Shown one piece after another: positions 3,509 to 49,278 of a stretch of 64,000 bases of DNA (positions within the stretch are counted from its first letter, which is position 1; every line of letters begins with the position of its first letter). Made by a program: the position numbers and the translations under genes. The notes below the pieces were generated by a model, which was not told the DNA's origin, ran no database searches, and was given only the letters and a program-made list of their open reading frames with translations. This stretch comes from Bacteroidia bacterium (GTDB lineage: Bacteria; Bacteroidota; Bacteroidia; 2-12-FULL-35-15). Where the stretch lies: the NCBI GenBank assembly GCA_039937835.1, contig JBDTFR010000105.1:28036-92035 (forward strand), written 5' to 3'.

Positions 3509-3562
3509 AGTTTATATTTAAATTTTTATTTTAATTTATTATTTAATTTTTGATGCAAACGC

Positions 3563-10200: not shown

Positions 10201-10240
10201 AAGAAGAGTTATAAAATTCAGTTCGTTTTATTTTTTTGAG

Positions 10241-14359: not shown

Positions 14360-17260
14360 TTAATGGTTATTGTCATTTTCATGAATTGCCAATTGAAGTA
14401 ACTGTGCTAAGTGTATCCCTTTGCGATCTGTTTGCTGATCAATTTGTTCTCGGCAACTAAATCCGTCGGCAACTACCAAGGTTGCTTTTTCTGTATTTCG
14501 CACTGCAGGCAATAACACTCGCTCACCAGCTTTAATAGAAATATCATAATGCTGTCCTTTTTCATAGCCAAAGCAACCCGCCATTCCGCAACAACCGGAG
14601 TCTAACAATTGATAATCCAGTGCCATCTTTTTAAAGATTTTTTTCTCAGCATCCATTTTCATAATAGCTTTATGATGACAGTGACCATGCACAACCGCTT
14701 TTCGCTTTAATTCAGGGATTTTAAAATCGACCGCTTTCTTTTCTAGAAACTCTGCAAGTGTATATACGTTGGCCTTTAAGCGTTTTGCCTGATGATTGTC
14801 TGGAAACAGATTGCATAATTCATCTCTAGATACAGCTACACAACTAGGTTCTAATCCAACAATGGGAGTACCTTGCTCTATTTCATCTTTCAGTGAGTGC
14901 ATAATCTGAAGTAACATTTTTTTCGCTCTGTCAAGCATTCCAAAATCGTATAAAGGTCTTCCGCAACATAGCGGTGTTTTTGGTGTTATAACTTTATAAC
15001 CTGCGGCTTCTAGCACTTCTACACCTGCCACAAGAGTTTCGGGCAAAAAGAAATTGTTAAAGGTGTCTGCCCACAAAATTACTATTGGTAGATCATTCTT
15101 TTTTTCGTCCCGTTGAAAGAACCAAGTTTTAAAACTTTGCTTTGCAAATTTTGGCATGGTTCGCTGAGGCGCTACACCAGCAATTGCTTTTACAATATTA
15201 GAAATTACAGGAGCGCGCATAAAGAAGTTAGCGATACTCGGCATAACGGAAGCCATGCGCGACCACCAATAAATCCAACCAAAAACATAAGCGGTTCGTG
15301 GTCTTAGCTTTCCTTTATAATAATGAGATAGAAATTCGGATTTGTAGGTAGCCATATCTACGTTTACAGGGCAATCACCTTTACAACCTTTGCAAGCCAA
15401 ACAAAGATCAAGTGATTCTTTTACATCCTTTTTTTTCCAACCGCTTTTTGTAACATCACCTTGCAGCATCTCAAAGAGCATACGAGCGCGTCCTCTGGTA
15501 CTATGTTTTTCTTTGCGCGTCACCATATAACTGGGGCACATCGTTCCTTCTTCATGGCGTCGGCAATTGCCTACGCCTACACATCTTATGGTAGCACGTG
15601 AAAAACTATGTTCATCATCTGGGAACTTAAAATGAGTATCTATATGAGGTGGATTATATGTATTGTTTAAACGAAGATTGGATAATTGACCATAACTGTC
15701 TATTATTTTACCTGGATTCATTTTCCCTGTCGGATCCCAAATGCTTTTAAATTCTTTAAATGCTTGTATAAGCTCTTTGCCAAACATAATTTCTAGTAGC
15801 TCACCGCGCGATTGTCCATCGCCGTGTTCACCCGAAAGCGAACCACCAAATTTTACCACCAGATGCGCTGCTTCTACTGTAAATGCCTTATAATTCTGTA
15901 ATCCTCTTTTTGTAAAAAGGTCGAACTGTATGCGACAATGAATACATCCTTGACCAAAATGTCCATAAACAGAGGGATGATAGTTGTATTTATCAAATAA
16001 TTTCCGAAGCGCTCTTAAATAATCAGCTACATTTTTAGGCGCCACAGCGGAATCTTCCCATCCTGTAGCAGTCATTGGTTCATCTGGTACCCAAGCAGTA
16101 GCACCAAGTCCAGACTCTCTAATCTCCCAAAGCATTTTTTCCTGATCGGGATCATCAAATAAACTCATATCTGGTGAATTTTCCTCTTTTTTAAGTGCAG
16201 CCATTAATTCTTTTGCCTTCTGATCACTTTCATCTTTTGTAGCACCGCCAAACTCCACCAGCAACCATCCTTTTCCTTTCGGTAACAAAGGCAAGTCTTT
16301 TAAATTAAGTCCTTTTTTCTCCATGTATTCGATCAGAATATCGTCAATCCCTTCCAGACCTATAGGCTTGTATTTCAATACAGTCATCACATCTTCCGCA
16401 GCAGAATACACATCTTTATACCCAAATACAACGAGTGATTTTGCTTTGGGTGCCGACAATAAATTCACTGAAGCTTCCACTATCGTTACGCAGGAGCTTT
16501 CTGATCCAACAAGTGCACGAGCTACATTAAAACCATTTTCCGGCAGCAGTTGCGGCAAGTTGTATCCTGAAACACGACGAGGTATGTTTGGAAATTTTTC
16601 GCGAATAAGGTCACTGTATTCATCTCTTAACTCTCTGAGGTTTTTATAAATTTCCGCTTTGCGACCACCTTCTTTAATTATCTGGTGATACTCGTCATCA
16701 GCAGTAGGGCCTACTTTCATTTTAACGCCATCATAGGTAACAATCGTAAGTGATTCCGTGTTATCGGAGATACGCGCACCATTACCTTGAAACTGCGCCA
16801 TGACAGAATGTATGCCGCAAGAATTATTTCCCAACATACCACCAATACAGCAATGGCTGTGTGTTGCGGGGTCAGGACCGAATGTAAGACCTGCTTTTTT
16901 TTCGGTTGTATGACGCATTTCATCTAATACAATACCTGGTTGTACACTTACCAGTTTTTTTTCTTTATCTATATTCAAAATCTGGTTAAAATATTTTGAC
17001 ATATCAATGACAACCGCTACGTTACAACCCTGTCCTGCGAGGCTCGTGCCGCCACCACGAGACAAGATGGGTGCTCCATATTTTCTGCAGATAGCAATGG
17101 TGTTAATCACATCATGTTCTGACTTAGGGAGTACAACACCAATAGGGATCTGTCTGTAATTGGAGGCATCGGTAGAATATAACGCCTTTGCACCGCTATC
17201 AAACCTTACTTCACCATTAATATTTTTTTTTAATTCTTGTTCAAGGGCAGCTATATCCAC
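14360..17260 (-). CDS. FAD-binding and Fe-S oxidoreductase (GlcD-like FAD-linked oxidase fused to a GlcF-like 4Fe-4S/CCG domain; YdiJ-like)
   Basis: It has an FAD_binding_4 motif (PILSRGGGTSLAGQG), a ferredoxin-type cluster (CLACKGCKGDCPV) and two CCG cysteine clusters (PLCCGRPLYDFG and SGCCGMAGCFGYEKG). The called start is GTG at 17258-17260, immediately 3' of a C8 homopolymer on the coding strand. Confidence 0.85.
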   Translation of the reverse strand: MDIAALEQELKKNINGEVRFDSGAKALYSTDASNYRQIPIGVVLPKSEHDVINTIAICRKYGAPILSRGGGTSLAGQGCNVAVVIDMSKYFNQILNIDKEKKLVSVQPGIVLDEMRHTTEKKAGLTFGPDPATHSHCCIGGMLGNNSCGIHSVMAQFQGNGARISDNTESLTIVTYDGVKMKVGPTADDEYHQIIKEGGRKAEIYKNLRELRDEYSDLIREKFPNIPRRVSGYNLPQLLPENGFNVARALVGSESSCVTIVEASVNLLSAPKAKSLVVFGYKDVYSAAEDVMTVLKYKPIGLEGIDDILIEYMEKKGLNLKDLPLLPKGKGWLLVEFGGATKDESDQKAKELMAALKKEENSPDMSLFDDPDQEKMLWEIRESGLGATAWVPDEPMTATGWEDSAVAPKNVADYLRALRKLFDKYNYHPSVYGHFGQGCIHCRIQFDLFTKRGLQNYKAFTVEAAHLVVKFGGSLSGEHGDGQSRGELLEIMFGKELIQAFKEFKSIWDPTGKMNPGKIIDSYGQLSNLRLNNTYNPPHIDTHFKFPDDEHSFSRATIRCVGVGNCRRHEEGTMCPSYMVTRKEKHSTRGRARMLFEMLQGDVTKSGWKKKDVKESLDLCLACKGCKGDCPVNVDMATYKSEFLSHYYKGKLRPRTAYVFGWIYWWSRMASVMPSIANFFMRAPVISNIVKAIAGVAPQRTMPKFAKQSFKTWFFQRDEKKNDLPIVILWADTFNNFFLPETLVAGVEVLEAAGYKVITPKTPLCCGRPLYDFGMLDRAKKMLLQIMHSLKDEIEQGTPIVGLEPSCVAVSRDELCNLFPDNHQAKRLKANVYTLAEFLEKKAVDFKIPELKRKAVVHGHCHHKAIMKMDAEKKIFKKMALDYQLLDSGCCGMAGCFGYEKGQHYDISIKAGERVLLPAVRNTEKATLVVADGFSCREQIDQQTDRKGIHLAQLLQLAIHENDNNH

Positions 17261-17271
17261 ACCCGCCGATT

Positions 17272-17454: not shown

Positions 17455-17964
17455 TTAAATAAACATTTTTTGTGTAATAAATCCATCAAACAATAATTCT
17501 TCAATTCTTGCTTGGTCAAAAAAATATTCGGCGATATAAAAGGAGGAAATAGCTAACGACGCGTGTAAATTTTTCGAAGGTGCACAATGTGACCAAATTG
17601 AAAGTTGCATGACCACACACAAATGACCGACTTTCAAAAAATTAGATATGGCTTCACATCGGGTGCAATCGGCTAGTAAAATACCTGCCTCATCCGCGCT
17701 CAACATGTTTTCATAATAAGGAAGGTTGTAACCGTATTCGCTCGCTGCAATGTTTATTTGTGAAGATACGCGGTCACGTATAAAATTTAATCCTTTTAAG
17801 TTAAAAGAGGCAACAGGTTCTTCAAACCAGTTAATATTAAAATCAGAAAATTCTTTTGCTTTTGAAAATGCCTGCTTAATTGTAGCACCGTTAATATCAT
17901 TTATTCCATCATCTGAAAATTCAAAAATAGGTCTTACACCCCATTCTGAGACGCCCTTGATTAT
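17455..17964 (-). pseudogene. 5'-truncated fragment of a mandelate racemase / muconate lactonizing enzyme (enolase superfamily) gene, C-terminal ~170 aa only
   Basis: An open minus-strand frame runs from the TAA at 17965-17967 down to 17455 with no ATG until 17706. Its translation reads ...NINWFEEPVASFNLKGLNFIRDRVSSQINIAASEYGYNLPYYENMLSADEAGILLADCTRCEAISNFLKVGHLCVVMQLSIWSHC... This matches the MR/MLE C-terminal barrel (the FEEP motif, then IAA[SG]E, then the GG-like turn and a His region). The N-terminal capping domain and the first barrel strands are absent. The upstream 536 bp carry stops in all frames. Confidence 0.55.
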
Positions 17965-18506: not shown

Positions 18507-19904
18507 TTATTGTTGTTTGCTATTTTTTAAAAAATCAACTATAGCATCTAATTCCTTGCTACTAAGAATGCCACCGTATGCAGGCATATCACTTCCTCCA
18601 TTTACTATTCTTAATTTTATATCGCTTTCTGAAAGCCGAAGTGAAAGCTTAGTAAGATCAGGTCCTTTTAATCCGCCCTGTTCGCCTATTCTATGGCAAT
18701 AAAGACAACCCTTTTTATAAAATAAATGAGCTCCTTCAATTACGGAAGGATTGCTCGAATTTATTGTAGATTTAGATAACGGTTTAACGTCGAAATGAGG
18801 AGACCATGCAGATTTTTCACCCAATAGGAACAATGTAAAAATAAAAATAAACACGCAAGCTGAACCAAAAACTGCCCAAGGTCTTCTGATGGGGCTTCGT
18901 TCTCCTTTATTTGAAAGAAATGGTAATGATAATAAAATAAGTATAGTAAAAATTGGACCTATAAAAATTACAACTGATTCTATTTTTGGTGGCATTAATG
19001 CAAACAATGAAAAGATAGAAAGCATATACCAATCGGGAGAAGGATTCGTATAAATAAAAGAAGGATCAGGAGGATGCGTTAATTCTGGCGGACCGAAAAC
19101 GAATGCAAAAAAAACAATAACAATAATTGTAGCTGCACCAAATAAAATATCTCGCCAAGCGGCATAGGGCCAAAACGGCACTCCATTTTTTTTTAACATA
19201 TCCTTATACCATTGTCTATATGTTTTAGGATCAACTGGGCGCCCAGCTTTTGCTGGTTCTGATATGCCGTTACGCACCACAAGCATTAAATGATATCCCA
19301 CAAATAGAAAAATAAAAGCTGGAATGATGAACACGTGATAGGAGTATAAGCGACTCAACGAATGCCCACCAATGGTATCTCCACCTAAAATCAGACGAGC
19401 AATAAATTTACCAATGAATGGAATTCGTCCCATTTGTTCCGCTGCAACGACCGCTGACCAAACACCGTTGGAATCCCACCGTAGTAATTGGCCGGTAAAA
19501 CCCATGGCAATTGTTAGAAACAAAAGTAGGACGCCACTAATCCATGACATTTCCCTGGGATATTTGTAAGCTGCCATTATATAAACGCGCATCATGTGAA
19601 TGCCCACCATAATGATCATTCCCGAAGCACCAAAATAGTGAATGCCTCTTAGCACATTGCCAAATTTAGCGGTGTGCGTTATAAATTGTAAAGAATGATA
19701 GGCCTCTGATGAAGAAGGTTGATAAAGAAGCGATAACGCTATGCCTGTAACAATTTGTAAAATTAGGCAAAATAAGGTAGCACTTCCGAAAACATAACTC
19801 CATTTGGAACCAGGAGGAACAGGGTGATTCATCAGCGGTTTAAAAATTTCTGAGAATCCACTCCGATCATCTATCCAATTCCATATTTTTTTTAGAATCT
19901 TCAT
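18507..19904 (-). CDS. Cytochrome b subunit of a Rieske/cytochrome b (bc-type) menaquinol:cytochrome c oxidoreductase, fused to a C-terminal mono-heme cytochrome c domain
   Basis: The heme-b ligand regions are RGIHYFGASGMIIMVGIHMMRVY, followed by a subunit-IV-like segment. The C-terminus carries the CxxCH motif (GCLYCHRIGEQGG) plus DMPAYGG. Confidence 0.85.
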   Translation of the reverse strand: MKILKKIWNWIDDRSGFSEIFKPLMNHPVPPGSKWSYVFGSATLFCLILQIVTGIALSLLYQPSSSEAYHSLQFITHTAKFGNVLRGIHYFGASGMIIMVGIHMMRVYIMAAYKYPREMSWISGVLLLFLTIAMGFTGQLLRWDSNGVWSAVVAAEQMGRIPFIGKFIARLILGGDTIGGHSLSRLYSYHVFIIPAFIFLFVGYHLMLVVRNGISEPAKAGRPVDPKTYRQWYKDMLKKNGVPFWPYAAWRDILFGAATIIVIVFFAFVFGPPELTHPPDPSFIYTNPSPDWYMLSIFSLFALMPPKIESVVIFIGPIFTILILLSLPFLSNKGERSPIRRPWAVFGSACVFIFIFTLFLLGEKSAWSPHFDVKPLSKSTINSSNPSVIEGAHLFYKKGCLYCHRIGEQGGLKGPDLTKLSLRLSESDIKLRIVNGGSDMPAYGGILSSKELDAIVDFLKNSKQQ

Positions 19905-20419
19905 GTTCGTTGTTTAGACGGTAATAATGGAGTAAGCGGAATTGGAGCGGTTAATAATTCCACATCGTTTTTATTTACTCGGACTTGATATTGAACCAAA
20001 GCTCTTGGTGGTGGCCCAGATGCTACGGTTCCATCTTTATAATAAACACCTCCATGACAAGGACACATAAACAATTCTGCTCCAGCCTCCCATCTGATAG
20101 GACAGCCAAGATGGGTGCAGTTCGCAGAAAACGCTGTAAACAAATTTTCTTCGTCTCTTCGTAACCAGGCTGCAGATAATGCTGTTACTCCAGCCCAAGC
20201 TTTTGCATCAGCATTTTCAAACTTTACGATGTTGGTTGTACCCACTGCAAAATCATCTAAACTACCAACTCTTCGCCATAATTCAGGTGTTTTTTCAAGC
20301 AAAGGTGCAAGCAATGCGCTAAAAACAGGAACCGCAACGGCTATAGCACTCAATGCGCTTAACCCTAAACTTACTTTAATTAAAAAAGATCTTCTGTTCT
20401 CTTGTGGTTTATCATTCAT
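19901..20419 (-). CDS. Rieske [2Fe-2S] iron-sulfur subunit with a Tat signal
   Basis: The twin-arginine signal is NRRSFLIKVSLGLSALSAIAVA. The Rieske boxes are CTHLGCPIRW and CPCHGGVY. The stop overlaps the cytochrome b start. Confidence 0.85.
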   Translation of the reverse strand: MNDKPQENRRSFLIKVSLGLSALSAIAVAVPVFSALLAPLLEKTPELWRRVGSLDDFAVGTTNIVKFENADAKAWAGVTALSAAWLRRDEENLFTAFSANCTHLGCPIRWEAGAELFMCPCHGGVYYKDGTVASGPPPRALVQYQVRVNKNDVELLTAPIPLTPLLPSKQRT

Positions 20420-20627
20420 GGCGCAATATATTAATCCATCGTGTGAGTGAAATTATAAAAATCAATAAGCCTGCTACTAAAATAACCCAACTGCTGAGAA
20501 GTCCCCAAAAAACAAAGGCAATACCCATAGCTGTAAAAAATGGCCAGTAGGTTGGCTCAGGTAGTTTTTCTGGTTTTGCTTTTTCCCATTCTACTTGTGG
20601 GATAATTGATGCAGTATATTTATTCAT
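20412..20627 (-). CDS. Small two-helix membrane protein (possible accessory subunit of the bc/oxidase complex)
   Basis: The 71-aa protein has a hydrophobic hairpin (FFTAMGIAFVFWGLLSSWVILVAGLLIFIISL). It overlaps the Rieske start by 8 nt in an operon context. Its function is unassigned. Confidence 0.4.
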   Translation of the reverse strand: MNKYTASIIPQVEWEKAKPEKLPEPTYWPFFTAMGIAFVFWGLLSSWVILVAGLLIFIISLTRWINILRHE

Positions 20628-20643
20628 CTGACGTGTTTTGTTT

Positions 20644-21450
20644 TTAATTTGATTGATTTAGAGAAATTGTATCATCTACTGCAAACCATTGTTGCAATAA
20701 ATAAATACAACCTGTTAGATATATCAGGCAGCAGGGTACCCACATAATAAGGCCAGCCGCCTTTTGGTCTTCGATAGCAGAAATTCCCAGAGGGTTAACG
20801 CTCATTCCTATAGAAGAACTTGTATTAACGTAATGATGATAAGTATTTGGCGGAGCAAATGTAATGAGCAACCCTAACAAAGAGCAACTGATACAAGCTG
20901 TAAATAGGTATACAATTCCAACAAGAGGATGTATCCGATATTTTAGAAAAGGCCCAACTAATGGCCAACTAAAAATCATACCTGCAAGTAACATGCTTGC
21001 AGAATGCATTAGCGGCATAAAATTAAGTGATTCATGCATGTGCGCAAAGGATGCATCAAACACATAAGGAATATGCCACAACCACATAACTACTGCGCCA
21101 GTTATCCAACTAATAAGCGGATATTTAAATAGTAAAGAGGACAGGGCTTCTATCTTCTTGAAAAAAAATGTAGGAGAAGAAATGGGAATAGATACTATAA
21201 TTAATGGACCGCAAACTAATAAGATAATGATATGAGCGATCATATGAGCGCTAAAATAATAGTGCATGCCTAAATAGTGAAGTGGTGAAAAAGTTACTAG
21301 TATAAAAAGAAAGAGTGCTGAGAAAAAGCAATATATGCTTTTCTTAAAACGAAAGCCGCCTAGAGAATAAAAAATAGAAACAATGAGTGCTAAAAATACG
21401 CATGTTGCTAGATCAGCATGCCATTCATAAAAAAGAGAAGTTAATTTCAT
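20644..21450 (-). CDS. Polytopic membrane protein, putative caa3-type cytochrome oxidase assembly factor (CtaG-like)
   Basis: The 268-aa protein has about seven predicted TM helices and conserved His/Trp positions (HMIAHIIILLVCGPL, WHIPYVFDASFAHMHESL). It lies between coxIII and the Rieske gene. The family call comes from memory of Bacillus CtaG (Caa3_CtaG) and is not verified. Confidence 0.45.
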   Translation of the reverse strand: MKLTSLFYEWHADLATCVFLALIVSIFYSLGGFRFKKSIYCFFSALFLFILVTFSPLHYLGMHYYFSAHMIAHIIILLVCGPLIIVSIPISSPTFFFKKIEALSSLLFKYPLISWITGAVVMWLWHIPYVFDASFAHMHESLNFMPLMHSASMLLAGMIFSWPLVGPFLKYRIHPLVGIVYLFTACISCSLLGLLITFAPPNTYHHYVNTSSSIGMSVNPLGISAIEDQKAAGLIMWVPCCLIYLTGCIYLLQQWFAVDDTISLNQSN

Positions 21451-21454
21451 AGCC

Positions 21455-22006
21455 TTAAGATAAATGTGGCATTACATAAACAATAAAAAAAACAAACAAC
21501 CATACAATGTCAACAAAGTGCCAGTACACGCCGACTGCGCTAACAATTGATGACTTTTTGTAATCGTAATCTCCGATGAAGGTTAGGTAGGTAATGATAC
21601 CAATAATGATTAGGCCAACTGCTACATGCAATCCATGAAACCCAGTTAATGTGAAGAAACTTGTTCCAAAAATACTGCTACTAATTGTTACTTGACTTGA
21701 TAATAGTTTTACATATTCTTTTGCCTGACCTAATAAAAAAAGAATACCCAATATAAGTGTGAACAGTATCCAAAATTTAAAACGTTTTATCATTCCGTTG
21801 TTGAAATTTTTTTCAGCGCGCCAATACGTAAAACTGCTGAACAATAACAAGGCAGTAAATTGGCTGGTGGTTGATATATCGAGGTTCTTTATTTGTTGCA
21901 TTTTAAATTCTGGCAGCAGCGAAAAATATACAAAAACCATTATTAAACAAAGAAAGAACATTGCTTCTGTGCCCACTACCAGTTTGACCATGATTTTATT
22001 ATCCAT
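21455..22006 (-). CDS. ctaE: Cytochrome c oxidase subunit III (short form)
   Basis: Contains GFHGLHVAVGLIII and VGVYWHFVDIVWLFVF, the subunit III signature. It is 183 aa. Confidence 0.85.
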   Translation of the reverse strand: MDNKIMVKLVVGTEAMFFLCLIMVFVYFSLLPEFKMQQIKNLDISTTSQFTALLLFSSFTYWRAEKNFNNGMIKRFKFWILFTLILGILFLLGQAKEYVKLLSSQVTISSSIFGTSFFTLTGFHGLHVAVGLIIIGIITYLTFIGDYDYKKSSIVSAVGVYWHFVDIVWLFVFFIVYVMPHLS

Positions 22007-22007
22007 T

Positions 22008-23666
22008 TTATTTTATTTTAAAGTCAGCATCGTTTCGTAGCTTATAATCTCTATAAGGTCTAGCACTTTTTATTGGTATTACGCGATCAAAATTCTGAAG
22101 TGGAGGAGGAGATGTAGTCGTCCATTCCAATGTATCAGCATCCCACGGATCTGAAGAAGCTATTTCCCCTTTTTTCATTGCTTTTAACACGATGTATATA
22201 AATAACCCAAAAGAAACTGCCATCAAAAATGCACCAATTGTTGAAATAAAATTGAGTATTCCCCATCCTGAAATATTGGGATATGTATAAACTCTGCGTG
22301 GCATACCCATAGCGCCTAATGCATGTTGAACTAAAAATGTAAGATTAAAACTAATAACGAAGAGCCAAAAAAACCATTTGCCTAAACGTTCATCCAAAAC
22401 TCTACCGCTTATTTTAGGAAACCAATAAAACATTCCTGAAAATAATCCAAATACGGTACCACCAATCAATACATAATGAAGGTGAGCAACAACATAATAG
22501 GTATCCGTTAACTGCCAATCAATAGGTACGATAGCGAATGAAATTCCGCTAAGACCACCAATGGTAAATTCAATCAAAAAAGCGATAGCAAACATCATGG
22601 AAACACTAAAACGGAGACTACCGCCATACATGGTGGCCAACCAGCTAAAAATTTTCACACCCGTAGGAATTCCAATAAGTAAACTACTTGCTGCAAAAAA
22701 TCCATTCACTGTATTGCCCAATCCTGTTGTAAACATATGATGTACCCACACTCCAAAAGCCAATAAGGAAATAGCCATTCCAGAGCCAACTACAAATGCG
22801 TATCCGAATATAGATTTGCGACTGAATACAGGAAACACTTCAGAAAGAATTCCAAAAATCGGAAGGATAACAATATAGACCTCTGGATGACCGAATAACC
22901 AAAACAAATGTTGCCATAAAATAGCCGAACCTCCAGCAACTGCACTAAAAAAATGAGCGTGAAGTTGCCTATCTATTAAAAGCATAGCTAATGCAGCGTT
23001 CAAAGAGGGGAATGCGGCTAAAACGAGAAAAGAATTTATGAGCACCATCCATACAAATATGGGTAGTTGCTTTAAACTCATGGAACGAACTTTATAGTTA
23101 AGAATTGTAACAATAAAATTTATTGACGCTGTTACAGATCCTATTCCTGAAAGTAAAAGACCGGAACAATAATAGTCAATTCCTTTGCTGGTGGAAAAAT
23201 TGACTTGGTTGAGTGGTGCATAATTAAACCAACCTGCATCAGGTGCTCCTCCTGCTAAAAAGCTAAAGTAGAGTAGAGAGCCTCCAAAAAAGGTCATCCA
23301 AAAGCTCAATGCATTTAGTCTTGGAAAAGCCATATCGTTCGCACCAATCATCAATGGAACAAAATAGGTTGAGAATCCAAATATAGCTGGCATGGCTACA
23401 AAAAAGATCATGGTCGTTCCATGCATCGTAAATAATTGATTGTAGGTTTCGGGCAAAAGAAAATGATTTTTGGGAATAGATAATTGTATTCTAACGAGCA
23501 ATATTTCAATGCCTCCGATTATCAAAAATACTACGGTTAACCATAAATACATAATCCCAATCTGCTTGTGATCGACAGAAGATATCCATTGCAACAATCC
23601 CTGGTCATTGCTAATACTTAGGTTAGGAATAGGCTTTTCTGGTTTGGGAATAAAAATTTCTTCCAT
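22008..23666 (-). CDS. ctaD: Cytochrome c oxidase subunit I
   Basis: Contains WLFGHPEVYIVILPIFGI, VWVHHMFTTG and YVVAHLHYVL (heme/CuB ligand regions). It is 552 aa. Confidence 0.95.
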   Translation of the reverse strand: MEEIFIPKPEKPIPNLSISNDQGLLQWISSVDHKQIGIMYLWLTVVFLIIGGIEILLVRIQLSIPKNHFLLPETYNQLFTMHGTTMIFFVAMPAIFGFSTYFVPLMIGANDMAFPRLNALSFWMTFFGGSLLYFSFLAGGAPDAGWFNYAPLNQVNFSTSKGIDYYCSGLLLSGIGSVTASINFIVTILNYKVRSMSLKQLPIFVWMVLINSFLVLAAFPSLNAALAMLLIDRQLHAHFFSAVAGGSAILWQHLFWLFGHPEVYIVILPIFGILSEVFPVFSRKSIFGYAFVVGSGMAISLLAFGVWVHHMFTTGLGNTVNGFFAASSLLIGIPTGVKIFSWLATMYGGSLRFSVSMMFAIAFLIEFTIGGLSGISFAIVPIDWQLTDTYYVVAHLHYVLIGGTVFGLFSGMFYWFPKISGRVLDERLGKWFFWLFVISFNLTFLVQHALGAMGMPRRVYTYPNISGWGILNFISTIGAFLMAVSFGLFIYIVLKAMKKGEIASSDPWDADTLEWTTTSPPPLQNFDRVIPIKSARPYRDYKLRNDADFKIK

Positions 23667-24622
23667 TACTTAAGTTGTTCTAAATATGCTGTTAACGCGC
23701 TTATGCTATCTCGATTAAAAATAAATCGCGGCATATGAGCACCCGGTTTTATTTTTTGCGGATCAGTTAACCAATCAAAAACATTTTTTGGATTGTTTTC
23801 TAATATCCCTCCTAAAATCATTTTCCTACTCGCAAAGTGTGTTAAGTCGGGACCTGCGATGCCTTTCGCATCCGTTCCACGAATGGAGTGACAACTGCTA
23901 CAGGTAGCTTTTTTAAATAAAGTTTCGCCTGCTAATGCCTTACTATCCAAAATTGGTAAAGCATTCCTAGCATTTATAATTACCCATTGATTAAAATCTT
24001 CCGGCGATTCTCCAATTACCCGAATACGCATCCAAGCATGTTGTTGTCCACAAAATTCACTGCACGCTCCTTCATAAATACCAGGTTTCGACAGTGTCAT
24101 CCATAAGTAATTAGTTGTGCCGGGTATCATGTCCATTTTACCTGCTAAAGAAGGAACCCACCAACTGTGAATCACATCTGCAGAATTTAATTGAAGCAGT
24201 AATTTTTTTCCAACAGGTAAATGCAATTCATTCGATGTGATCGATTTTGATGACGGATAGGATATCTCCCACCACCATTGATGACCAGTTATAACAACGT
24301 CTGGTGTTTCCTTGTGCCGTTCTGGTAACACAGCATTCATGATTTTAATAGACCAAAAAAAGAAGAACAGAACAAGTATAAACGGGCCAGTAACCATAAG
24401 TATTTCAAGCTTTCGATTGCTTGTAATCTCTTTCGGTTCGTGTTTATTTGTTTTTGCACGAAATTTTACAAGAATATAAATGGTTAAAAAAATAACCAAC
24501 AGTAAGATAAAGCATGCAGCTATGATAAACCCATTTGTGATCGATCTAATTTTTTCAGATTGTGGAGAGAAAGAATTAAAAATTGACTGAAAATAAATAA
24601 ACATTTGTAAAGGGAAATACAT
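23666..24622 (-). CDS. ctaC: Cytochrome c oxidase subunit II, caa3 type (CuA domain plus C-terminal heme c domain)
   Basis: The CuA site is HSWWVPSLAGKMD...CSEFCGQQHAWM. The C-terminal CxxCH is ATCSSCHSIRG. The gene overlaps the ctaD start. Confidence 0.9.
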   Translation of the reverse strand: MYFPLQMFIYFQSIFNSFSPQSEKIRSITNGFIIAACFILLLVIFLTIYILVKFRAKTNKHEPKEITSNRKLEILMVTGPFILVLFFFFWSIKIMNAVLPERHKETPDVVITGHQWWWEISYPSSKSITSNELHLPVGKKLLLQLNSADVIHSWWVPSLAGKMDMIPGTTNYLWMTLSKPGIYEGACSEFCGQQHAWMRIRVIGESPEDFNQWVIINARNALPILDSKALAGETLFKKATCSSCHSIRGTDAKGIAGPDLTHFASRKMILGGILENNPKNVFDWLTDPQKIKPGAHMPRFIFNRDSISALTAYLEQLK

Positions 24623-24660
24623 ACGCTCGAATTAGATATATAAATTTTTGTTCACTATTT

Positions 24661-25029
24661 TTACTCTGAGTATGCAATTGTTGTAATCAAAGCATTTTCA
24701 CTTTGACGAGAATCCAATCGCGTATGTTGAATGATAATTGGCACATCTGATTCAAAGACGCTAGAGTAATCCGTCCCTAACGGAATAACTCCAGGATCTT
24801 TCAGATTATTAAACCGCATATGGAATGTACGTTTTCCTTTTACGGTGATTTTAAAAGGTCCAATTGGATCTCTGTCAGCAAAGTAAATCATTAGTGAGAT
24901 GTTTGCATCTTGGTCTCCAACATTTAATATACAAGCTGCTTCATGACTCGTAAATTCTGGAGCTGGTCCATTACTCCATGAAGGGATATAGCCTTCTGCT
25001 ATTGCCCAAATTTTTTTACCTAATTTCAT
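24661..25029 (-). CDS. Small beta-sandwich protein resembling the sensory-rhodopsin-transducer (ASRT/DUF1362) family
   Basis: The 122-aa protein has WAIAEGYIPSWSNGPAPEFTSHEAACILN...DVPIIIQHTRLDSRQ. The similarity to ASRT-family proteins is recalled from memory and not verified. No rhodopsin gene is present in the window. Confidence 0.45.
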   Translation of the reverse strand: MKLGKKIWAIAEGYIPSWSNGPAPEFTSHEAACILNVGDQDANISLMIYFADRDPIGPFKITVKGKRTFHMRFNNLKDPGVIPLGTDYSSVFESDVPIIIQHTRLDSRQSENALITTIAYSE

Positions 25030-25108
25030 AGTCGTTAAATATTATTTAAATTCTTATTTATTCATTTACACAACTACTCAACCATAAATTTATGATTGTA
25101 TAGTAACT

Positions 25109-25915
25109 TTATCCACCGTGTGCAAACTCGGGATATAACGTCATACCACCATCAACATAAATTGTGGTTCCTGTTATATAATCAGCCTCATCCGAAGCAA
25201 TCCACACGGCAACTTTTGCAATATCTTCCGGCTGACCTATTCGCTGATAAGGAATCATTTTTAATAATTGTTCATTTTGTTTTGGGTCTGACCATACTTT
25301 TTTATTAATATGTGTTTGTATGGCACCAGGCGCAATACTATTCACTCTTATTTTTTGTGGAGCAACTTCTTGTGCAAGCGTTTTCATTAGCATCGTTTCT
25401 CCTCCTTTAGAAGTGGTATAATTTGCGTGTCCAGCCCATGGAATAATATTATGAACCGAGCTTATAAAAATAATTTTACCACAAGCAGATGATCGGTCTT
25501 TCACAATTCCTCTTTTGGTAAATTCTTTTACTGCTTCTCTTGAACATAAGAATTGACCGGTGAGATTGGTATCTAAAACAGATTGCCATGTTTTTAAAGA
25601 CATTTCACTAAACTTACTATCCTTCTGAATTCCAGCATTGTTTACCAATATGTCGAGTGTACCAAATTGCTTAATTGCGTTATCAAACATAGAAACCACC
25701 TCTTCTTCTTTGCTTACATCTGCTTTAATGATTGCTCCTTTCCCACCCGCTTTTTTAATAGTGTCGAGAACGGACATTGCGCTATCTTCATCTGAGTAGT
25801 AATTCACAATTACATTTGCACCTGCCTGACCCATAGCGATAGCAATGGCTTTTCCAATACCAGAGTTTGCACCGGTAATTAAAACTGTTTGTTCAAGTAA
25901 TTTAGTTGCTTTCAT
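25109..25915 (-). CDS. SDR-family oxidoreductase, glucose 1-dehydrogenase-like
   Basis: Carries the TGANSGIGKAIA Rossmann motif, NNAG and the YTTSKGG catalytic Y-x3-K. Overall it looks collinear with Bacillus glucose 1-dehydrogenase (...INYYS... and the C-terminal DGGMT.YP.F). That comparison is recalled, not aligned. Confidence 0.75.
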   Translation of the reverse strand: MKATKLLEQTVLITGANSGIGKAIAIAMGQAGANVIVNYYSDEDSAMSVLDTIKKAGGKGAIIKADVSKEEEVVSMFDNAIKQFGTLDILVNNAGIQKDSKFSEMSLKTWQSVLDTNLTGQFLCSREAVKEFTKRGIVKDRSSACGKIIFISSVHNIIPWAGHANYTTSKGGETMLMKTLAQEVAPQKIRVNSIAPGAIQTHINKKVWSDPKQNEQLLKMIPYQRIGQPEDIAKVAVWIASDEADYITGTTIYVDGGMTLYPEFAHGG

Positions 25916-27272
25916 TTTTTTTTGTTTTTAGTTGCTCTATCCATCCGCCAGTAAAGCCCGCTTTTATCAAACCCACTGTTATATAGTTAGATTTCTTTAT
26001 TATATTCCAAATAAGCCGCGTTCTATAATTCTCTATCATGATGATTATAGGCCCTTGATTTAATCCATATTGCAAAGGAGAAATCCATCCGTTAGGATTG
26101 GGTCCTTTCTCAGGATAGGTAGGATTGAAACTTGCATCAAATCCATATTTACTATGCTTCTTTAAATCTAATCGCTCTATTGCATGTCTAATTGTTTTTA
26201 AAACAATATCCGAAGCAAAAGGTAGAGAAGCTACTACAGCCCATGGCGCAATCGTTCCATCATCTGGTCCATAAGGAGCTCCGCGTGCTATATATGAAAA
26301 AAATGTTCTTTGAACCCCTTTTATCATCATTGTTCTATTGCCAGGGCCATTGCTAGCGGTAAAGCCCCATCCATTTTCACTGTAATGCAAAAATTGTAAA
26401 GGGTTTTTAATTGCATATTGTTGTTGAATATGTGTTGCACGAGAACTGTTTTCAAAATAATCAATCTTATCCTTCTTGTTACGATCGTCTTGAATACCCT
26501 CAAAATCTATCCAAATGTGCGACATCTGATGAATAAAAAGAGGTCCCGCATAATAGCATTTTATACCATATATATCTTTCAACTCAAATGTTGATATCCA
26601 TTTATTGTAAATAGGTGATTGAATTGGAAATGTGGTAGAACCCAAGGCAAGAATATAAAGAATATGTGCCTCACTATAATCCTTGTCCCAACTGTATGAA
26701 AGAAAGCCTGATTCTGGTTTCCATCCATGATTTATTGCATCACTTCCGTTCAATGCCCAATTCCAGTCAATACGTAAATATATTTTATCTGCTAATGATC
26801 TGATTTCGGATTCTATCTCGTTATCATCTAAATAGTAATTTTGCGCAGTTAATATTCCAGCAACAAGTATTGCGGTATCAATGGTAGATAATTCACAATT
26901 CCAAGTTCGTTTTCCAGTTTTCATGTCAAGAAAGTGGTAATAAAACCCTTTATAGCCAGTGGCATCTGATTCAGTACTTTGCTTGCTAGTATAAAGAAAT
27001 TTTAAAACCGTATGTGTTCGTTTGACAGCCTCAGCCCTTGAAAATAAATTACACTCAACCGCTGAGATGTAACAGGTAAGTGCCATTCCGACTGCTGCTA
27101 TACTACATGGAGAATCGTATGACGTGTTATCTGCTATTAATCCATTTTCAAGGTTCGTTTCCTTCAAAAAAAATTCCAATGTTTCTTTTTGTAACGTCGC
27201 TAACATTTCCGTATCAGTTCCCTGAGGATTAACATTTGATAATGGCGTATGTTTGTCTTCTTCTATCATCAC
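25902..27272 (-). CDS. Putative (alpha/alpha)6-barrel glycoside hydrolase, DUF3131 / GH144-like (endo-beta-1,2-glucanase-like)
   Basis: The 456-aa protein has no signal peptide. Its aromatic-rich segments (GFYYHFLDMKTGKRTW, YSWDKDYSEAHILYILALG, HIWIDFEGIQD, GWGFTASNGPG) resemble Bacteroidota 'putative glucoamylase' proteins. The assignment is tentative. Confidence 0.4.
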   Translation of the reverse strand: MMIEEDKHTPLSNVNPQGTDTEMLATLQKETLEFFLKETNLENGLIADNTSYDSPCSIAAVGMALTCYISAVECNLFSRAEAVKRTHTVLKFLYTSKQSTESDATGYKGFYYHFLDMKTGKRTWNCELSTIDTAILVAGILTAQNYYLDDNEIESEIRSLADKIYLRIDWNWALNGSDAINHGWKPESGFLSYSWDKDYSEAHILYILALGSTTFPIQSPIYNKWISTFELKDIYGIKCYYAGPLFIHQMSHIWIDFEGIQDDRNKKDKIDYFENSSRATHIQQQYAIKNPLQFLHYSENGWGFTASNGPGNRTMMIKGVQRTFFSYIARGAPYGPDDGTIAPWAVVASLPFASDIVLKTIRHAIERLDLKKHSKYGFDASFNPTYPEKGPNPNGWISPLQYGLNQGPIIIMIENYRTRLIWNIIKKSNYITVGLIKAGFTGGWIEQLKTKKNESN

Positions 27273-28711
27273 AATTCAAGGGTTAAGAAAACAATACCTT
27301 GTGGAGGAATGAAAACCTCGATAGAAATACTTTTATCTTTATATGTATTTCTAATTGATTGCTTTTCTAGAACAGATGCTGCTTCCAACATATTCACTTC
27401 GTCACGGTTCAGCGTATCTTTCATTCCATCATCCTTCCAAACTTTATTTGCATTGGAGTGGTCATGGTCTATTCGCTCTATAAAAACACTTTTAACTTCT
27501 TCTATATTTTCTAACTGAAGATGTATGAACTCCGTATGAATGGGATGCCGTGGTAACGCCCAATTTGTAATGAGCACATTTATTTCCTTTTTTTTGTAAG
27601 TCACCCATGTGTCCACGGTTTTGTGTTTACCATGCACAGTCAATAATTCGTTTCCCAAGCGATGCAATAATTCATAAGCACGATAAGCAGGTTTCGGAAT
27701 ACCGTTGATGTTCAATAACCCAAAGCCCCCATGAAACGGTATAGAGGAAAAATAATTTTCATCAAAAATATCGGAAAAAGTCCAATAGCTATATCCTTCA
27801 ACAATACCACTTGCTTCCATTATCGTTTTTATAATAAAAGCAGCTGCATAGGGTTCATCATGCAATCCATCAAAAGGATTAGAAGACGTGGACCATTCTG
27901 TATAATAGATCGGCTTCCCTTCCGCCTGTTCCTTTACATTTTTAGCTTCATCATGAAGGACGCTTCGCTTACTTTCTGAAAGTTGAGTAATCGTATCATC
28001 TCCAGGCTTTCCAAAAGAATCCGTTGGATAGTGATGCGTGGATATAAAATCTACTGGAAGATTATTTTTTTTGCAGAAAACTATAAAATCAGTTATCCAC
28101 TCATTATTAGCAGTAGCGGGACCACCCACTTTCAACGTTTTATCTATTTTTTTGATTGCCGTAACAGTGGTTTGATATAATTTAAAATAATCTGCCTGTG
28201 ATCCATCCCAGAAAGCTTTCAGATTGGGCTCATTCCAAACCTCGAAAAACCATTTACTAACTTCATCTATCCCATAGCGTTTTACAAGATGTGCGATTAA
28301 TTTGGATATGAGCGTTTCCCAATCTTTATAATCTCGTGGCGGGTCTATATTTCCTTTATAACTAAAAACTGTTTTATTACCAGAAGATATGGCGGCAGGC
28401 ATAAACGATAATTCCATAAAGGGCCTCATTCCTATGGATAATAAAAAGTCACAAATTTGATCGATATTAAAAAAGGAATAAATATACGTATTGTCTTGAT
28501 CAACGAGTGTATACATATTGTCTGATAACAATCCATGAAATCGAACATGTTTAAATCCGAGCTCTTTTGTACACCTCGATAATTGTTTTTGCCAATCAGA
28601 ACGCAGTGCCATAGTAGCATGCGAAGCTCCTATTGTATGCTCCCAAAAATGGGGGAAAACTATACGCTTATCTTTTACGTCGCATTTGAAATTAATTACT
28701 TCTAGCTTCAT
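27269..28711 (-). CDS. Glycoside hydrolase family 39-like (beta-xylosidase type)
   Basis: Carries FFEVWNEPNLKAFWDGSQADYFKLY (catalytic NEP motif of clan GH-A/GH39) and YYTEWS. It is 480 aa with no signal peptide and overlaps the next gene by 4 nt. Confidence 0.7.
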   Translation of the reverse strand: MKLEVINFKCDVKDKRIVFPHFWEHTIGASHATMALRSDWQKQLSRCTKELGFKHVRFHGLLSDNMYTLVDQDNTYIYSFFNIDQICDFLLSIGMRPFMELSFMPAAISSGNKTVFSYKGNIDPPRDYKDWETLISKLIAHLVKRYGIDEVSKWFFEVWNEPNLKAFWDGSQADYFKLYQTTVTAIKKIDKTLKVGGPATANNEWITDFIVFCKKNNLPVDFISTHHYPTDSFGKPGDDTITQLSESKRSVLHDEAKNVKEQAEGKPIYYTEWSTSSNPFDGLHDEPYAAAFIIKTIMEASGIVEGYSYWTFSDIFDENYFSSIPFHGGFGLLNINGIPKPAYRAYELLHRLGNELLTVHGKHKTVDTWVTYKKKEINVLITNWALPRHPIHTEFIHLQLENIEEVKSVFIERIDHDHSNANKVWKDDGMKDTLNRDEVNMLEAASVLEKQSIRNTYKDKSISIEVFIPPQGIVFLTLEL

Positions 28712-47187: not shown

Positions 47188-47877
47188 TTATAATTTTTCG
47201 CCTTTTTTCTTTGCATTCTCTTTAATGGTGTATTCAGCAATTAATACTTTTATATCATCTAATAAATCATTTACGGCTTTTGTGTTGGTACCATCATAAA
47301 CGCCGCGTATGTGTTTTTCTTTATCCACCAATATAAAAAATTCACTGTGGATAAAATCATCAGGTCCACCATCTCCTTGTAAAGCATTTATCAAGTAACC
47401 ATTGCGAGCTAGATCATAAAGTTGTTTTTTATCTCCAGTAACAAAATTCCACATTTTATTATTAGCATGCACCATATTTGAATATGCTTTTAATATAGGC
47501 ACAGAGTCTGTTTCTGGGTTTACAGTATGTGATAAAATTTGTACTAATCCCTTGGTATATTCAAAACCTTCTTGTACTCTTAATAATTCTGTTGTCATTT
47601 TAGGGCAAATAGTTTTACAGGTTGTAAAAAAATAACTAGCAACATATATTTTACCATCGTAATAAGTATTGGTAATGGTATCATTATCTTGATTGATAAA
47701 TTTAAAAGTAGGAATAGAATGATAAATGGTGTCTTTACCATTCGCAGCAATATGCCTCTCGCCTATATATGGTAAATGAATAAAATTGTGTTTACCAACG
47801 GTTAAAATAACATATAATATAGAAGGGAAAGATAATAGAAAAAATAAAATAAGTAATACAGAAGTTCTCTTTTTCAC
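47188..47877 (-). CDS. SCO1/SenC-family thioredoxin-like copper chaperone
   Basis: An N-terminal TM anchor is followed by FFFTTCKTICPKMT (the CxxxCP copper-binding motif) and a downstream His. Confidence 0.8.
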   Translation of the reverse strand: MKKRTSVLLILFFLLSFPSILYVILTVGKHNFIHLPYIGERHIAANGKDTIYHSIPTFKFINQDNDTITNTYYDGKIYVASYFFTTCKTICPKMTTELLRVQEGFEYTKGLVQILSHTVNPETDSVPILKAYSNMVHANNKMWNFVTGDKKQLYDLARNGYLINALQGDGGPDDFIHSEFFILVDKEKHIRGVYDGTNTKAVNDLLDDIKVLIAEYTIKENAKKKGEKL

Positions 47878-47966
47878 GATATTTAAATCAAGTATAAAAT
47901 CATAAAAAAATGGCTTTGCATATTATTTTGCAGAGCCATTTTTGTTTGTATTGTTAATTAATTAGT

Positions 47967-48446
47967 TTAATGCTCATGTTGCATTGTTTCAGTGGCACCT
48001 TCGTGATGACCACTTTTTGCTTGTTCATTTAGCTCCATTTTTTGTTTTATAATCAATGGATCCATTTTATCTTTATGAAGTAAGCTATAATTAGCTTCCC
48101 CTACAGTAATAAAAAATAAATAAATTGCAAATATAGTATAAGGTACCACTACGCAATATTTTAGCATTTTTATTTCATCACCTAAATGCATGAAATTATA
48201 AACAATGAAATAAGCTTTTCCTATTGTTAAACCTATAAATATAACCTTTAATATGAAAGTAGAGTTTCTATCATCATGAAGTAAACCCCACTTACCAGCA
48301 AAAGTACCAATAATTAGTTCTAAGATAGTAATGGCCAACATGATCCAAAATACATTCCATAATTTTCTGCGTTTAATTTTACCTTCTTCTTCGCTATGAT
48401 GAGCCATTAACTCATATTGCGGGTAATCATCGTGAAATTCTGACAT
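47967..48446 (-). CDS. Cytochrome c oxidase subunit IV-family small membrane protein (prokaryotic COX4 type)
   Basis: The 159-aa protein has three TM helices and His-rich termini. It lies between coxIII and sco, as in Bacteroidota cox accessory clusters. Confidence 0.55.
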   Translation of the reverse strand: MSEFHDDYPQYELMAHHSEEEGKIKRRKLWNVFWIMLAITILELIIGTFAGKWGLLHDDRNSTFILKVIFIGLTIGKAYFIVYNFMHLGDEIKMLKYCVVVPYTIFAIYLFFITVGEANYSLLHKDKMDPLIIKQKMELNEQAKSGHHEGATETMQHEH

Positions 48447-48488
48447 ACAATTTATTTTTATTTCTTAATAAACGAATATTTAATAATT

Positions 48489-49214
48489 TTATAGTAAATA
48501 AAAGAAGGTAAATACAAATACCCACACTAAATCTACAAAGTGCCAATACAACCCTACCTTTTCTACCATTTCATAATGCCCGCGTTTTTCATACGTGCCC
48601 TTTAGTACATTGGTAAAAATAATAATATTAATAACAACTCCACTAAATACGTGAAATCCGTGAAATCCCGTAATGAAAAAGAAAAAATTGGCAAACACTG
48701 GCAATCCATATTCATTCACCGTCATGTTTGCTCCTTTTACTATTTTATCAACATAATGACCATCCACTAAAACACTACGCATTGCACCGTGGTCAGTACC
48801 CACAATAAAATGGTACCATTCCCAAGCTTGAGAGCCTAAAAACATTGCCCCACCAATAATGGTTAATAACATAAACATGATTACTTTCCTTTTATCATTA
48901 CGATGCCCCGCTTCAACAGCTAACACCATTGTAACAGATGACATGATTAAGATTAAAGTCATTAATCCTACGTAAGCTAAAGGAAGATGTCCTTCATACC
49001 CTGGAAAATGGGTAAATACATCACCTGGATTAGGCCATACTTCTGGGTGTTTATGGCGCATAAAACCATAAGCACACAATAAACCCGTAAAAGTTAATGC
49101 ATCTGATACCAAAAAGAACCACATGAACATTTTTCCATAGCTAACTCTAAATGGAGATTTTCCACCACTCCAAGCTGAGTCAGAGTCTGTTTCTAATACT
49201 GCGTTACTTGACAT
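48489..49214 (-). CDS. Cytochrome c oxidase subunit III
   Basis: Contains GFHGFHVFSGVVINII and VGLYWHFVDLVWVFVF. It is 241 aa. Confidence 0.85.
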   Translation of the reverse strand: MSSNAVLETDSDSAWSGGKSPFRVSYGKMFMWFFLVSDALTFTGLLCAYGFMRHKHPEVWPNPGDVFTHFPGYEGHLPLAYVGLMTLILIMSSVTMVLAVEAGHRNDKRKVIMFMLLTIIGGAMFLGSQAWEWYHFIVGTDHGAMRSVLVDGHYVDKIVKGANMTVNEYGLPVFANFFFFITGFHGFHVFSGVVINIIIFTNVLKGTYEKRGHYEMVEKVGLYWHFVDLVWVFVFTFFYLL

Positions 49215-49278
49215 AATATTACTTAAATTAAATTATTAAAAATGTAGAATGCGAAGATGCAAACTTTTCACTAAACTT

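Follow-up and report, generated by a model that had tools for sequence, protein, structure and literature searches.

A 64,000-nt stretch of contig JBDTFR010000105.1, from the assembly of a Bacteroidia bacterium, was analysed as a whole and is called the window here. It carries a seven-gene operon on the minus strand at 24622..18507 that joins a caa3-type oxidase to a Rieske/cytochrome b-c complex. We argue that these genes very likely encode a complete and self-contained menaquinol:O2 branch, that the operon is one copy of a widespread cassette, and that this genome probably gained it from a Mucilaginibacter-like donor. The gene content, the intact cofactor motifs and the conserved gene order are direct observations. 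The cassette is conserved, widely distributed and common in soil Bacteroidota, which makes it an ordinary element and not one peculiar to this genome. It is annotated already in hundreds of genomes and apparently has not been studied biochemically in Bacteroidota.

Seven genes with intact cofactor sites

The original prediction placed seven co-oriented genes in this region, and the window's list of open reading frames (ORFs) has all seven on the minus strand at their predicted positions. Neighbours are packed closely. The genes for the 71-aa protein and the Rieske protein overlap by 8 nt, those for the Rieske protein and cytochrome b overlap by 4 nt, and gaps reach at most 16 nt, between ctaG and the gene for the 71-aa protein. 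Pfam and NCBIfam confirm each of the predicted genes and domains, with 6 of the 7 proteins exceeding curated hidden Markov model (HMM) cutoffs. The CtaG-like and cytochrome b/c calls had been singled out for an HMM check, and both hold. The key operon motifs are conserved in 61-83 orthologues.

The operon begins with ctaC (23666..24622), which encodes CoxII with a C-terminal fused monohaem cytochrome c, the caa3 type (Pfam COX2, COX2_TM and Cytochrom_C). It scores 183 bits on TIGR02866 against a cutoff of 147.7. The CuA motif C.E.CG..H..M is found at residue 187 and a CxxCH at 241, and these are kept in 61 of 61 orthologues. Since the CuA motif is present, this CoxII belongs to a cytochrome c oxidase and not to a quinol oxidase. 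The intact CuA site rules out the quinol oxidase reading, and the quinol-oxidase models QoxA and CyoA score far under their own cutoffs. The closest solved structure is subunit II of Thermus caa3 (2YEV_B, 187 bits), a match that includes the cytochrome c domain.

Subunit I of an A1-type haem-copper oxidase is encoded by ctaD (22008..23666). CoxI reaches 675.5 bits on TIGR02891, where the cutoff is 670.75. It has DMAFPR at 111, GHPEVY at 259, HHMF at 309, PTGVK at 334 and AHLHY at 394, and TMHG is present also. It thus has everything expected of the A1 type: the six His ligands, the cross-linked Tyr, the residues of the D- and K-channels and the D-channel glutamate (GHPEVY). Among solved structures it is nearest to B. 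subtilis aa3-600, with 544 bits, and to mycobacterial CtaD, with about 531. Next comes ctaE (21455..22006), a short subunit III of 183 aa that matches Pfam COX3 with 71.8 bits. Its best NCBIfam model is aa3_CtaE_Actin, at 108 bits and under the cutoff. The ctaG gene (20644..21450) encodes a polytopic oxidase assembly factor of the Caa3_CtaG type (PF09678, 102.3 bits against a cutoff of 27.7), and its counterpart in the Fulvitalea and Deinococcus operons is annotated as "cytochrome c oxidase assembly protein". CtaA was not identified among the window proteins scanned, and CtaB occurs there only in a second cox cluster, described below.

The 71-aa protein (20412..20627) is a two-helix membrane protein and probably a CtaF-like oxidase subunit IV. 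Nearly all orthologous operons keep it between CtaG and Rieske, with the motif P-x-LP-x-PTYWPF..A.G..F..WG...GWI..LRHE. The window protein itself scores 18.1 bits on PF12270 (Cyt_c_ox_IV, the actinobacterial-type subunit IV), under the cutoff of 26.9. This family is matched by 16 of 17 orthologues at E<=0.05, the best at 1.9e-6, and the matches span the last two helices only. The Fulvitalea orthologue is annotated as "cytochrome c oxidase subunit 4". Neither a single-sequence nor a profile search gave a solved-structure match for the 71-aa protein. Its assignment as a two-helix CtaF-like oxidase subunit is moderately supported by these family comparisons.

The Rieske [2Fe-2S] protein encoded by qcrA (19901..20419) is of the kind exported by twin-arginine translocation (Tat). 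It scores 39 bits on PF00355 against a cutoff of 20.3, and its best-scoring subfamily models are b6f-type. Its closest solved relatives are the b6f-type and Thermus Rieske proteins. The RRSFL Tat motif is at residue 9, CTHLGC at 101 and CPCHG at 119, and both cluster boxes are present in 80 of 80 orthologues. The residue after CPCHG is Gly, versus Ser in high-potential Rieske proteins. From mutagenesis of the bc1 complex, Gly in place of Ser at this position fits a low-potential, menaquinol-oxidising Rieske enzyme.

The last gene of the operon is a fusion of qcrB and qcrC (18507..19904). Its 465-aa product consists of a b6-like cytochrome b, subunit-IV-like helices and a periplasmic monohaem cytochrome c. 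It matches Cytochrome_B (147 bits) and Cytochrom_B_C, followed by Cytochrome_CBB3/Cytochrom_C. His89, His103, His190 and His205 are invariant in the family alignment and align to the four haem ligands of b6. Helix D has 14 residues between His190 and His205, which is the b6-type spacing. Among solved structures the best matches are to cytochrome b6 (165 bits), and subunit IV aligns to residues 231-353. The PDWY motif of the Qo site is at residue 290 and is found in 81 of 83 orthologues. The fused cytochrome c domain has CLYCH at 400 and MPAY at 440. Read from the sequence by eye, there is no further membrane span between the subunit-IV-like helices and the cytochrome c domain, so the architecture is that of Bacillus QcrB and QcrC in one chain. 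The cytochrome b fusion and CoxII have a single CxxCH each, and the operon has no separate QcrC gene.

Proposed electron path and relation to known systems

We propose the following path. A Rieske/cytochrome b complex of the Bacillus-like b6c kind would oxidise menaquinol at its Qo site (PDWY) and recycle one electron through haems bL and bH in a Q cycle. The other electron would go by way of the Rieske [2Fe-2S] cluster to the monohaem cytochrome c fused to the C-terminus of cytochrome b. It would continue to the cytochrome c fused to CoxII, to CuA, to haem a and finally to the haem a3-CuB site of an A1-type proton-pumping oxidase. CtaG would assemble the oxidase, and the 71-aa protein would be its CtaF-like fourth subunit. 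That electrons take this path, that menaquinol is the substrate and that the two complexes associate physically is inferred from homologous systems. The original prediction was right that every carrier of the chain is anchored in the membrane, in that cytochrome c is fused to both cytochrome b and CoxII. It had also called the operon "Bacillus/actinobacterial style", and this can be defended too. Among solved structures CoxI is nearest to aa3-600 and actinobacterial CtaD, the cytochrome b is b6-like and the 71-aa protein is probably CtaF-like. As a description of how the operon probably works, a Gram-positive style label is fair.

Some points weigh against so complete a picture. The haem c-to-haem c hand-over and the supercomplex are drawn from actinobacterial and Bacillus systems. 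The haem-ci cysteine (Cys35 of b6) is absent: the "FYCLGG" of b6 (2ZT9 chain A) aligns to "SYVFGS", with Val38 instead. A sigma-70 promoter and terminator scan of 17.0-26.2 kb gave matches no commoner than in shuffled sequence, with a model that is not fitted to Bacteroidota promoters. We therefore claim no transcription-unit boundaries. The transcription unit may be longer than the seven genes, the upstream genes being co-oriented and overlapping or closely spaced.

One can imagine that the bc complex and the oxidase are encoded together and yet work as separate enzymes. Electrons would then leave the bc complex for soluble or lipid-anchored cytochromes, or for other acceptors, without an obligate supercomplex. 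Bacillus and Thermus systems with a similar fused cytochrome c can use extra small cytochromes c, and a SoxE-like cupredoxin domain on a Chloroflexota cytochrome b-c protein hints at branching electron exits. However, the seven genes are strictly co-linear and translationally coupled across four phyla. Both partners carry a tethered cytochrome c, and a gene for a soluble one is not in the operon. We consider separate enzymes unlikely and favour the self-contained branch.

In plan the operon resembles B. subtilis QcrABC (b6c) with CtaCDEF and CtaG. The window operon shares with it a b6-like cytochrome b, the His-x14-His spacing of helix D, PDWY, subunit-IV-like helices followed by a monohaem cytochrome c (QcrC), the CoxII-cytochrome c fusion and Caa3_CtaG. 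The Bacillus respiratory chain is menaquinone-based. There are differences as well. QcrB and QcrC are fused in the window, Val stands in for the haem-ci Cys, and identity to the Brevibacillus QcrB/C region is 29%. In Bacillus the qcrABC and cta genes are at separate loci, whereas the window has qcr and cta genes in one operon. A b6f-type complex with haem ci is ruled out by the absence of the Cys. For the same reason we do not consider this protein a strict member of the b6f or Bacillus b6c subgroup. Val38 is invariant across the 12 family members aligned.

The actinobacterial bcc-aa3 systems (M. smegmatis 6ADQ/6HWH and C. glutamicum 7Q21) are similar in having membrane-bound carriers and no need for a soluble cytochrome c. 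No solved oxidase is much closer to CoxI than mycobacterial CtaD (about 531 bits), CoxIII is short and the small subunit is probably CtaF-like. However, in the actinobacteria QcrC is a separate dihaem protein and CoxII has no cytochrome c, whereas the window has one haem c domain per partner. The window proteins bear just a distant resemblance to the far larger QcrB and QcrA of actinobacteria (63-73 bits and 28.6 bits). All the actinobacterial NCBIfam models score under cutoff; bc1_QcrC_actin, for example, reaches 16.8 bits versus 200. Without a dihaem QcrC, and with the equivalog models far under their cutoffs, the window operon falls outside the actinobacterial bcc-aa3 family.

Thermus thermophilus caa3 (2YEV) is similar in its subunit II-cytochrome c and in being an A-family oxidase with a small extra subunit. 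In Thermus subunits I and III are fused, whereas the window has them separate and has the A1 GHPEVY. Thermus caa3 is of the A2 subtype and would lack the glutamate of GHPEVY.

A further comparison is with the Alternative Complex III (ACIII) of Bacteroidota. In F. johnsoniae (6BTM) and Rhodothermus marinus ACIII works with an aa3 or caa3 oxidase, linking menaquinol to the aa3-type enzyme with no soluble carrier between them (PMC8552683). It is unrelated in fold and cofactors (PMC8552683). The window operon shares its physiological role with these ACIII-oxidase systems.

Distribution and origin of the cassette

At least 573 sites that encode a relative of the cytochrome b-c protein came up in a scan with one genome for each species, and the locus comparisons use the best 80 of these. 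Loci, including some beyond these 80, are referred to by L numbers. Nearly all of the 80 are Bacteroidota: Sphingobacteriales, Chitinophagales, Cytophagales, Aureivirga (Flavobacteriales) and Prolixibacteraceae. The Balneolales and one Ignavibacteria metagenome-assembled genome (MAG) are represented as well. All seven genes are co-linear in 57 of the 60 loci that have at least 5.3 kb upstream of the cytochrome b gene, and the 20 shorter loci agree with this order as far as their sequence reaches. Two of the three exceptions differ only in having no detectable small protein of the 71-aa type. The third (L068 10001-11392, a Flavipsychrobacter MAG) has the cytochrome b-c gene alone after an 838-aa ORF, with no cox or Rieske gene within 10 kb.

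The order coxII(c)-coxI-coxIII-ctaG-small subunit-Rieske-cytochrome b/c is identical in Mucilaginibacter, Puia and other Chitinophagaceae, Spirosoma, Pontibacter, Chloroflexota and two plasmids. Identity to the Bacteroidota loci ranges from about 30%, for the small subunit of the most divergent loci, to about 82% for CoxI. For the cytochrome b-c fusion there are more than 100 database clusters at 65-78% identity. Those with names are Pedobacter, Mucilaginibacter, Puia, Hanamia, Ginsengibacter and Rubrolithibacter. The fusion is 48-50% identical to the cytochrome b-c proteins of Deinococcus and Chloroflexota. The Chloroflexota copies are in MAGs and have the same seven-gene order. The plasmid copies are on pFA4 of Fulvitalea axinellae (L092, 309 kb) and P1 of Deinococcus gobiensis (L093, 433 kb), and both plasmids are typed as non-mobilizable. 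Plasmids of Deinococcus sp. AJ005 and D7000 have a full-length cytochrome b-c homologue at about 50% identity.

Several copies depart from the usual form. In two Chloroflexota loci (L081 and L082, 9001-10899) the cytochrome b-c protein is 632 aa long and has an extra C-terminal SoxE-like domain, a cupredoxin of the sulfocyanin type. The small-subunit homologue of Chloroflexota is 134 aa long with a long N-terminal extension. On a Joint Genome Institute (JGI) metagenome contig (L083) the order is different: genes for a cytochrome c and a long Rieske protein come first, then those for cytochrome b-c, CoxII-c and a fused CoxI-CoxIII, and last an unknown gene and the one for Caa3_CtaG. Downstream of these are extra small cytochromes c and a molybdopterin oxidoreductase. 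Two MAG contigs have proteobacterial labels, yet their operons fall inside Bacteroidota clades. The operon of L004 (labelled Beijerinckiaceae) nests beside Puia and Chitinophagaceae palsa_949, and that of L037 (labelled Janthinobacterium lividum) beside Hymenobacter. These labels are probably binning errors and not cross-phylum transfers.

The statement that Bacteroidota lack Rieske/cytochrome b, with which the original prediction began, is too strong given at least 573 relatives, a best 80 that are almost all Bacteroidota and one order in 57 of 60 loci. It had also treated the operon as exceptional, and named two things that together would make it normal: same-order operons throughout its family, and the lack of ACIII from those genomes. 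The first half is what we find, since operons with this order are common in relatives. As to the second half, there are no act (ACIII) genes within the 64-kb window. Exact-protein look-ups at its two ends returned short Logan contigs that contribute nothing past the window and have no act genes. In loci L001-L091 a search for multihaem proteins, confined to the 10 kb around the operon, found no ORF with at least three CxxCH motifs. Cytochrome b-Rieske complexes are reported to exist in some Bacteroidetes and to be rarer than ACIII (PMC3362086, citing Refojo 2010). This was the sole relevant remark in our literature search, which found no paper describing a bc-caa3 operon in Bacteroidota.

A neighbour-joining (NJ) tree was made from 1,461 columns of CoxI, CoxII, Rieske and cytochrome b-c with 200 bootstraps. 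The Bacteroidota and Ignavibacteria copies are one clade in 200/200, and Deinococcus and Chloroflexota are outside it. This makes a recent import from another phylum unlikely. One could still look to the Firmicutes or Actinobacteria for a recent donor, as it is with models and structures from Bacillus and actinobacteria that CoxI, CoxIII and the small subunit have their highest scores. However, the nearest cytochrome b-c relatives outside the Fibrobacteres-Chlorobi-Bacteroidetes (FCB) group are Chloroflexota (49%) and Deinococcus (48-50%). Brevibacillus QcrB/C is just 29% identical, hundreds of Bacteroidota copies make one clade and the actinobacterial equivalog models are far under their cutoffs. 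A recent import from a Gram-positive phylum is extremely improbable. We rule out such a donor, the nearest outgroups being Chloroflexota and Deinococcus. The original prediction had raised horizontal acquisition of the module, and that idea survives in another form. There is no sign of a recent import from Firmicutes or Actinobacteria, but acquisition from a Mucilaginibacter-like donor is suggested, and the module is on plasmids in Fulvitalea and Deinococcus.

Within the clade the operon tree broadly tracks taxonomy. In 200/200 the window operon shares a group with Mucilaginibacter, a single "Puia" locus and L090, which is a metagenomic contig. For the cytochrome b-c fusion, identity falls from 100% directly to 78% with no matches between. 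For the housekeeping protein AsnS, by comparison, four relatives are 93% identical and more than 100 others lie at 86-90%. None has a genus name, and at most they are generic "Bacteroidia", "Bacteroidetes" or "Bacteroidota bacterium" MAGs. CtaB of the second cox cluster has relatives at 92-96% and more than 100 further matches, again none with a genus name. The comparison of composition with flanking DNA, which had been proposed as a check, finds the block at 14.4-28.7 kb atypical. GC at third codon positions (GC3) is 0.284 in the twelve genes of 14360-28711 and 0.237 in the other 38 (Mann-Whitney p=1e-4). Codon-usage distance is larger for the genes of this block than for the rest of the window (p=2e-5), and the operon likewise differs from the native cox cluster (p=0.018). 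An acquisition by this lineage is suggested by the identity contrast between AsnS or CtaB and cytochrome b-c, by the atypical composition and by flanking genes that recur in relatives. We lean towards the operon and its neighbouring genes having been acquired by this uncultured, low-GC lineage within the phylum, from a Mucilaginibacter-like (Sphingobacteriaceae) donor. The acquired operon would add a second aa3-type branch beside the lineage's own oxidase, whose accessory genes are at 47-51 kb.

There are also points against this acquisition. The MAG itself may be an uncultured relative of the Sphingobacteriaceae, and its position in the tree would then be vertical. Respiratory membrane proteins may carry a codon bias of their own. 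The missing 80-99% homologues could reflect patchy assembly of close relatives into short contigs. There is no integrase, tRNA or repeat at the edges of the 14.4-28.7 kb block, and the trees are distance-based, by NJ only. Rfam and tRNA scans of the window found tRNA-Phe only and nothing in the 1.25-kb gaps. An insertion-site test with AsnS homologues at 88-90% identity could define no empty site, those genomes not being syntenic around AsnS.

The alternative is that the operon is native, inherited vertically from the FCB ancestor, and that the compositional offset is a gene-specific constraint. In the tree the FCB copies make up a single clade (200/200), within which Chitinophagaceae, Cytophagales and Sphingobacteriaceae are each grouped apart. 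There are no mobility genes beside the block, the GC3 shift is small (0.28 versus 0.24) and the native CtaB has a similar codon distance. Vertical descent does not sit well with a cytochrome b-c protein that has no 80-99% homologues even though AsnS and CtaB have relatives at 92-96%. Nor does it explain why the operon is inside the Mucilaginibacter/"Puia" clade, whereas the relatives of AsnS and CtaB are without any genus name. Composition also sets the block apart from the remainder of the window (p<=1e-4). Vertical descent is a serious but less probable account, and acquisition within the phylum is the one we prefer.

Neighbouring genes and the wider meaning

Downstream of the operon is a gene for a 966-aa YdiJ-like FAD/Fe-S/CCG dehydrogenase (14360..17260, minus strand; FAD_binding_4, FAD-oxidase_C, Fer4_8 and CCG). 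It scores 492 bits on the YdiJ model NF049975, under the cutoff. A homologue with 65-76% identity is within 10 kb of the operon in 23 of the 80 loci, in varying arrangements. The gap between dehydrogenase and operon (17261-18506, 1.25 kb) has no large ORF, and in it is the C-terminal remnant of an enolase-superfamily gene of the mandelate racemase/muconate-lactonizing enzyme (MR/MLE) type, a pseudogene fragment at 17455..17960 on the same strand. It matches MR_MLE_C with E=1.4e-22 over profile positions 50-195 of 219. WFEEP is in frame and the N-terminal half is missing. The remnant is 49% identical to the intact gene preceding the dehydrogenase in L090. A rearrangement has thus cut the enolase-family gene, of which just a C-terminal remnant precedes the window dehydrogenase.

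Upstream, 38 nt from ctaC, is an ASRT-family gene (24661..25029, minus strand; PF07100, 175 bits) that is possibly co-transcribed with the operon. Of the 80 loci, 14 have an ASRT-family gene at most 10 kb from the operon. Beyond it are three co-oriented genes at 25109..28711, identified with Pfam and NCBIfam and joined by 4- and 14-nt overlaps. They encode a GH39 glycoside hydrolase, a putative glucoamylase and a short-chain dehydrogenase/reductase (SDR) like glucose-1-dehydrogenase. Homologues of the GH39 and glucoamylase genes (59-63% identity) flank the operon in L004, L012, L017 and L070. The GH39 gene is preceded by an AT-rich 1.25 kb (28712-29965, GC about 0.29) that has neither an ORF of at least 120 aa nor a match in Rfam. 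On its far side, away from the compositionally atypical block, are genes for a LytTR response regulator and a 1402-aa multi-PAS histidine kinase.

Eleven genes are closely packed in L090, where the operon has its nearest relative. First comes an enolase-superfamily gene, followed by genes for a 1026-aa FAD/Fe-S/CCG dehydrogenase, an ASRT-like protein and a 342-aa SDR (these four within 1-5341) and then by the seven operon genes. Relative to loci of this type, the window has the dehydrogenase/enolase-family pair moved downstream and the enolase-family gene truncated. The enolase-family gene adjoins the dehydrogenase in 18 more loci. The dehydrogenase, the enolase-family gene, ASRT and the 342-aa SDR recur beside the operon across Sphingobacteriales, Chitinophagales and Cytophagales in several arrangements, with L006, L007, L011, L014, L015, L042, L045, L051, L067 and L070 among the loci. 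We offer tentatively, and think it rather doubtful, that the bc-caa3 cassette is the respiratory half of a larger portable unit, a substrate-dedicated chain that moves between lineages, in Fulvitalea and Deinococcus on large plasmids. A sugar-acid or 2-hydroxyacid pathway would then feed its own dehydrogenase, complex III and complex IV.

The second cox cluster is as the original prediction described it, an accessory set for a different oxidase with no CoxI or CoxII. It has the order ctaB-coxIII-coxIII-coxIV-sco at 47188..50776 on the minus strand (UbiA, two COX3, COX4_pro and SCO1-SenC). We take it to be the accessory set associated with ACIII-linked oxidases. The cluster is conserved in close and distant relatives, with no CoxI or CoxII within 10 kb. 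That a further oxidase core is encoded elsewhere in the genome is supported by this, not proven.

The same part of the window can be compared with L089 (13629-20762), whose CtaB is 93% identical and which is syntenic with the window from a SpoIIE-domain gene to Sco and tRNA-Phe. The contig stops too far from the operon block to compare the two there. Past tRNA-Phe (47031-47104) it diverges and has a DnaE2/ImuB-type error-prone polymerase cassette. In the window this place (43645-46870) is taken by genes for a methyltransferase, two unknown proteins and a DUF502 protein. The tRNA-Phe seems to mark the boundary of a variable region. Elsewhere in the window, at 9163-12679 and 38773-43448, are two separate pairs of a PorP/SprF-family gene and a large cargo gene of the type IX secretion system (T9SS) with CHU_C/PKD domains. 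The second pair is followed by OmpA/TPR and MORN-repeat genes. The T9SS genes (PorP/SprF and CHU_C) back the Bacteroidota origin of the window, as do protein matches of 100% identity to the MAG of a Bacteroidia bacterium.

For the window itself the practical outcome is annotation rather than discovery. More interesting as leads are that the cassette is portable between phyla and between replicons, and that a YdiJ-like dehydrogenase cluster is repeatedly linked to it. One gene order is found across Bacteroidota, Ignavibacteria, Chloroflexota and Deinococcus, and on plasmids in two genera, which makes this a respiratory branch that is movable as a unit. The textbook-style generalisation needs correcting: ACIII is not the sole link from menaquinol to aa3-type oxidases in Bacteroidota, and many soil lineages carry a compact Rieske/cytochrome b-c and caa3 cassette. 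Cultured carriers (Mucilaginibacter, Segetibacter koreensis, Spirosoma oryzae and Pontibacter) would allow the ACIII and bc branches to be compared in one physiological background.

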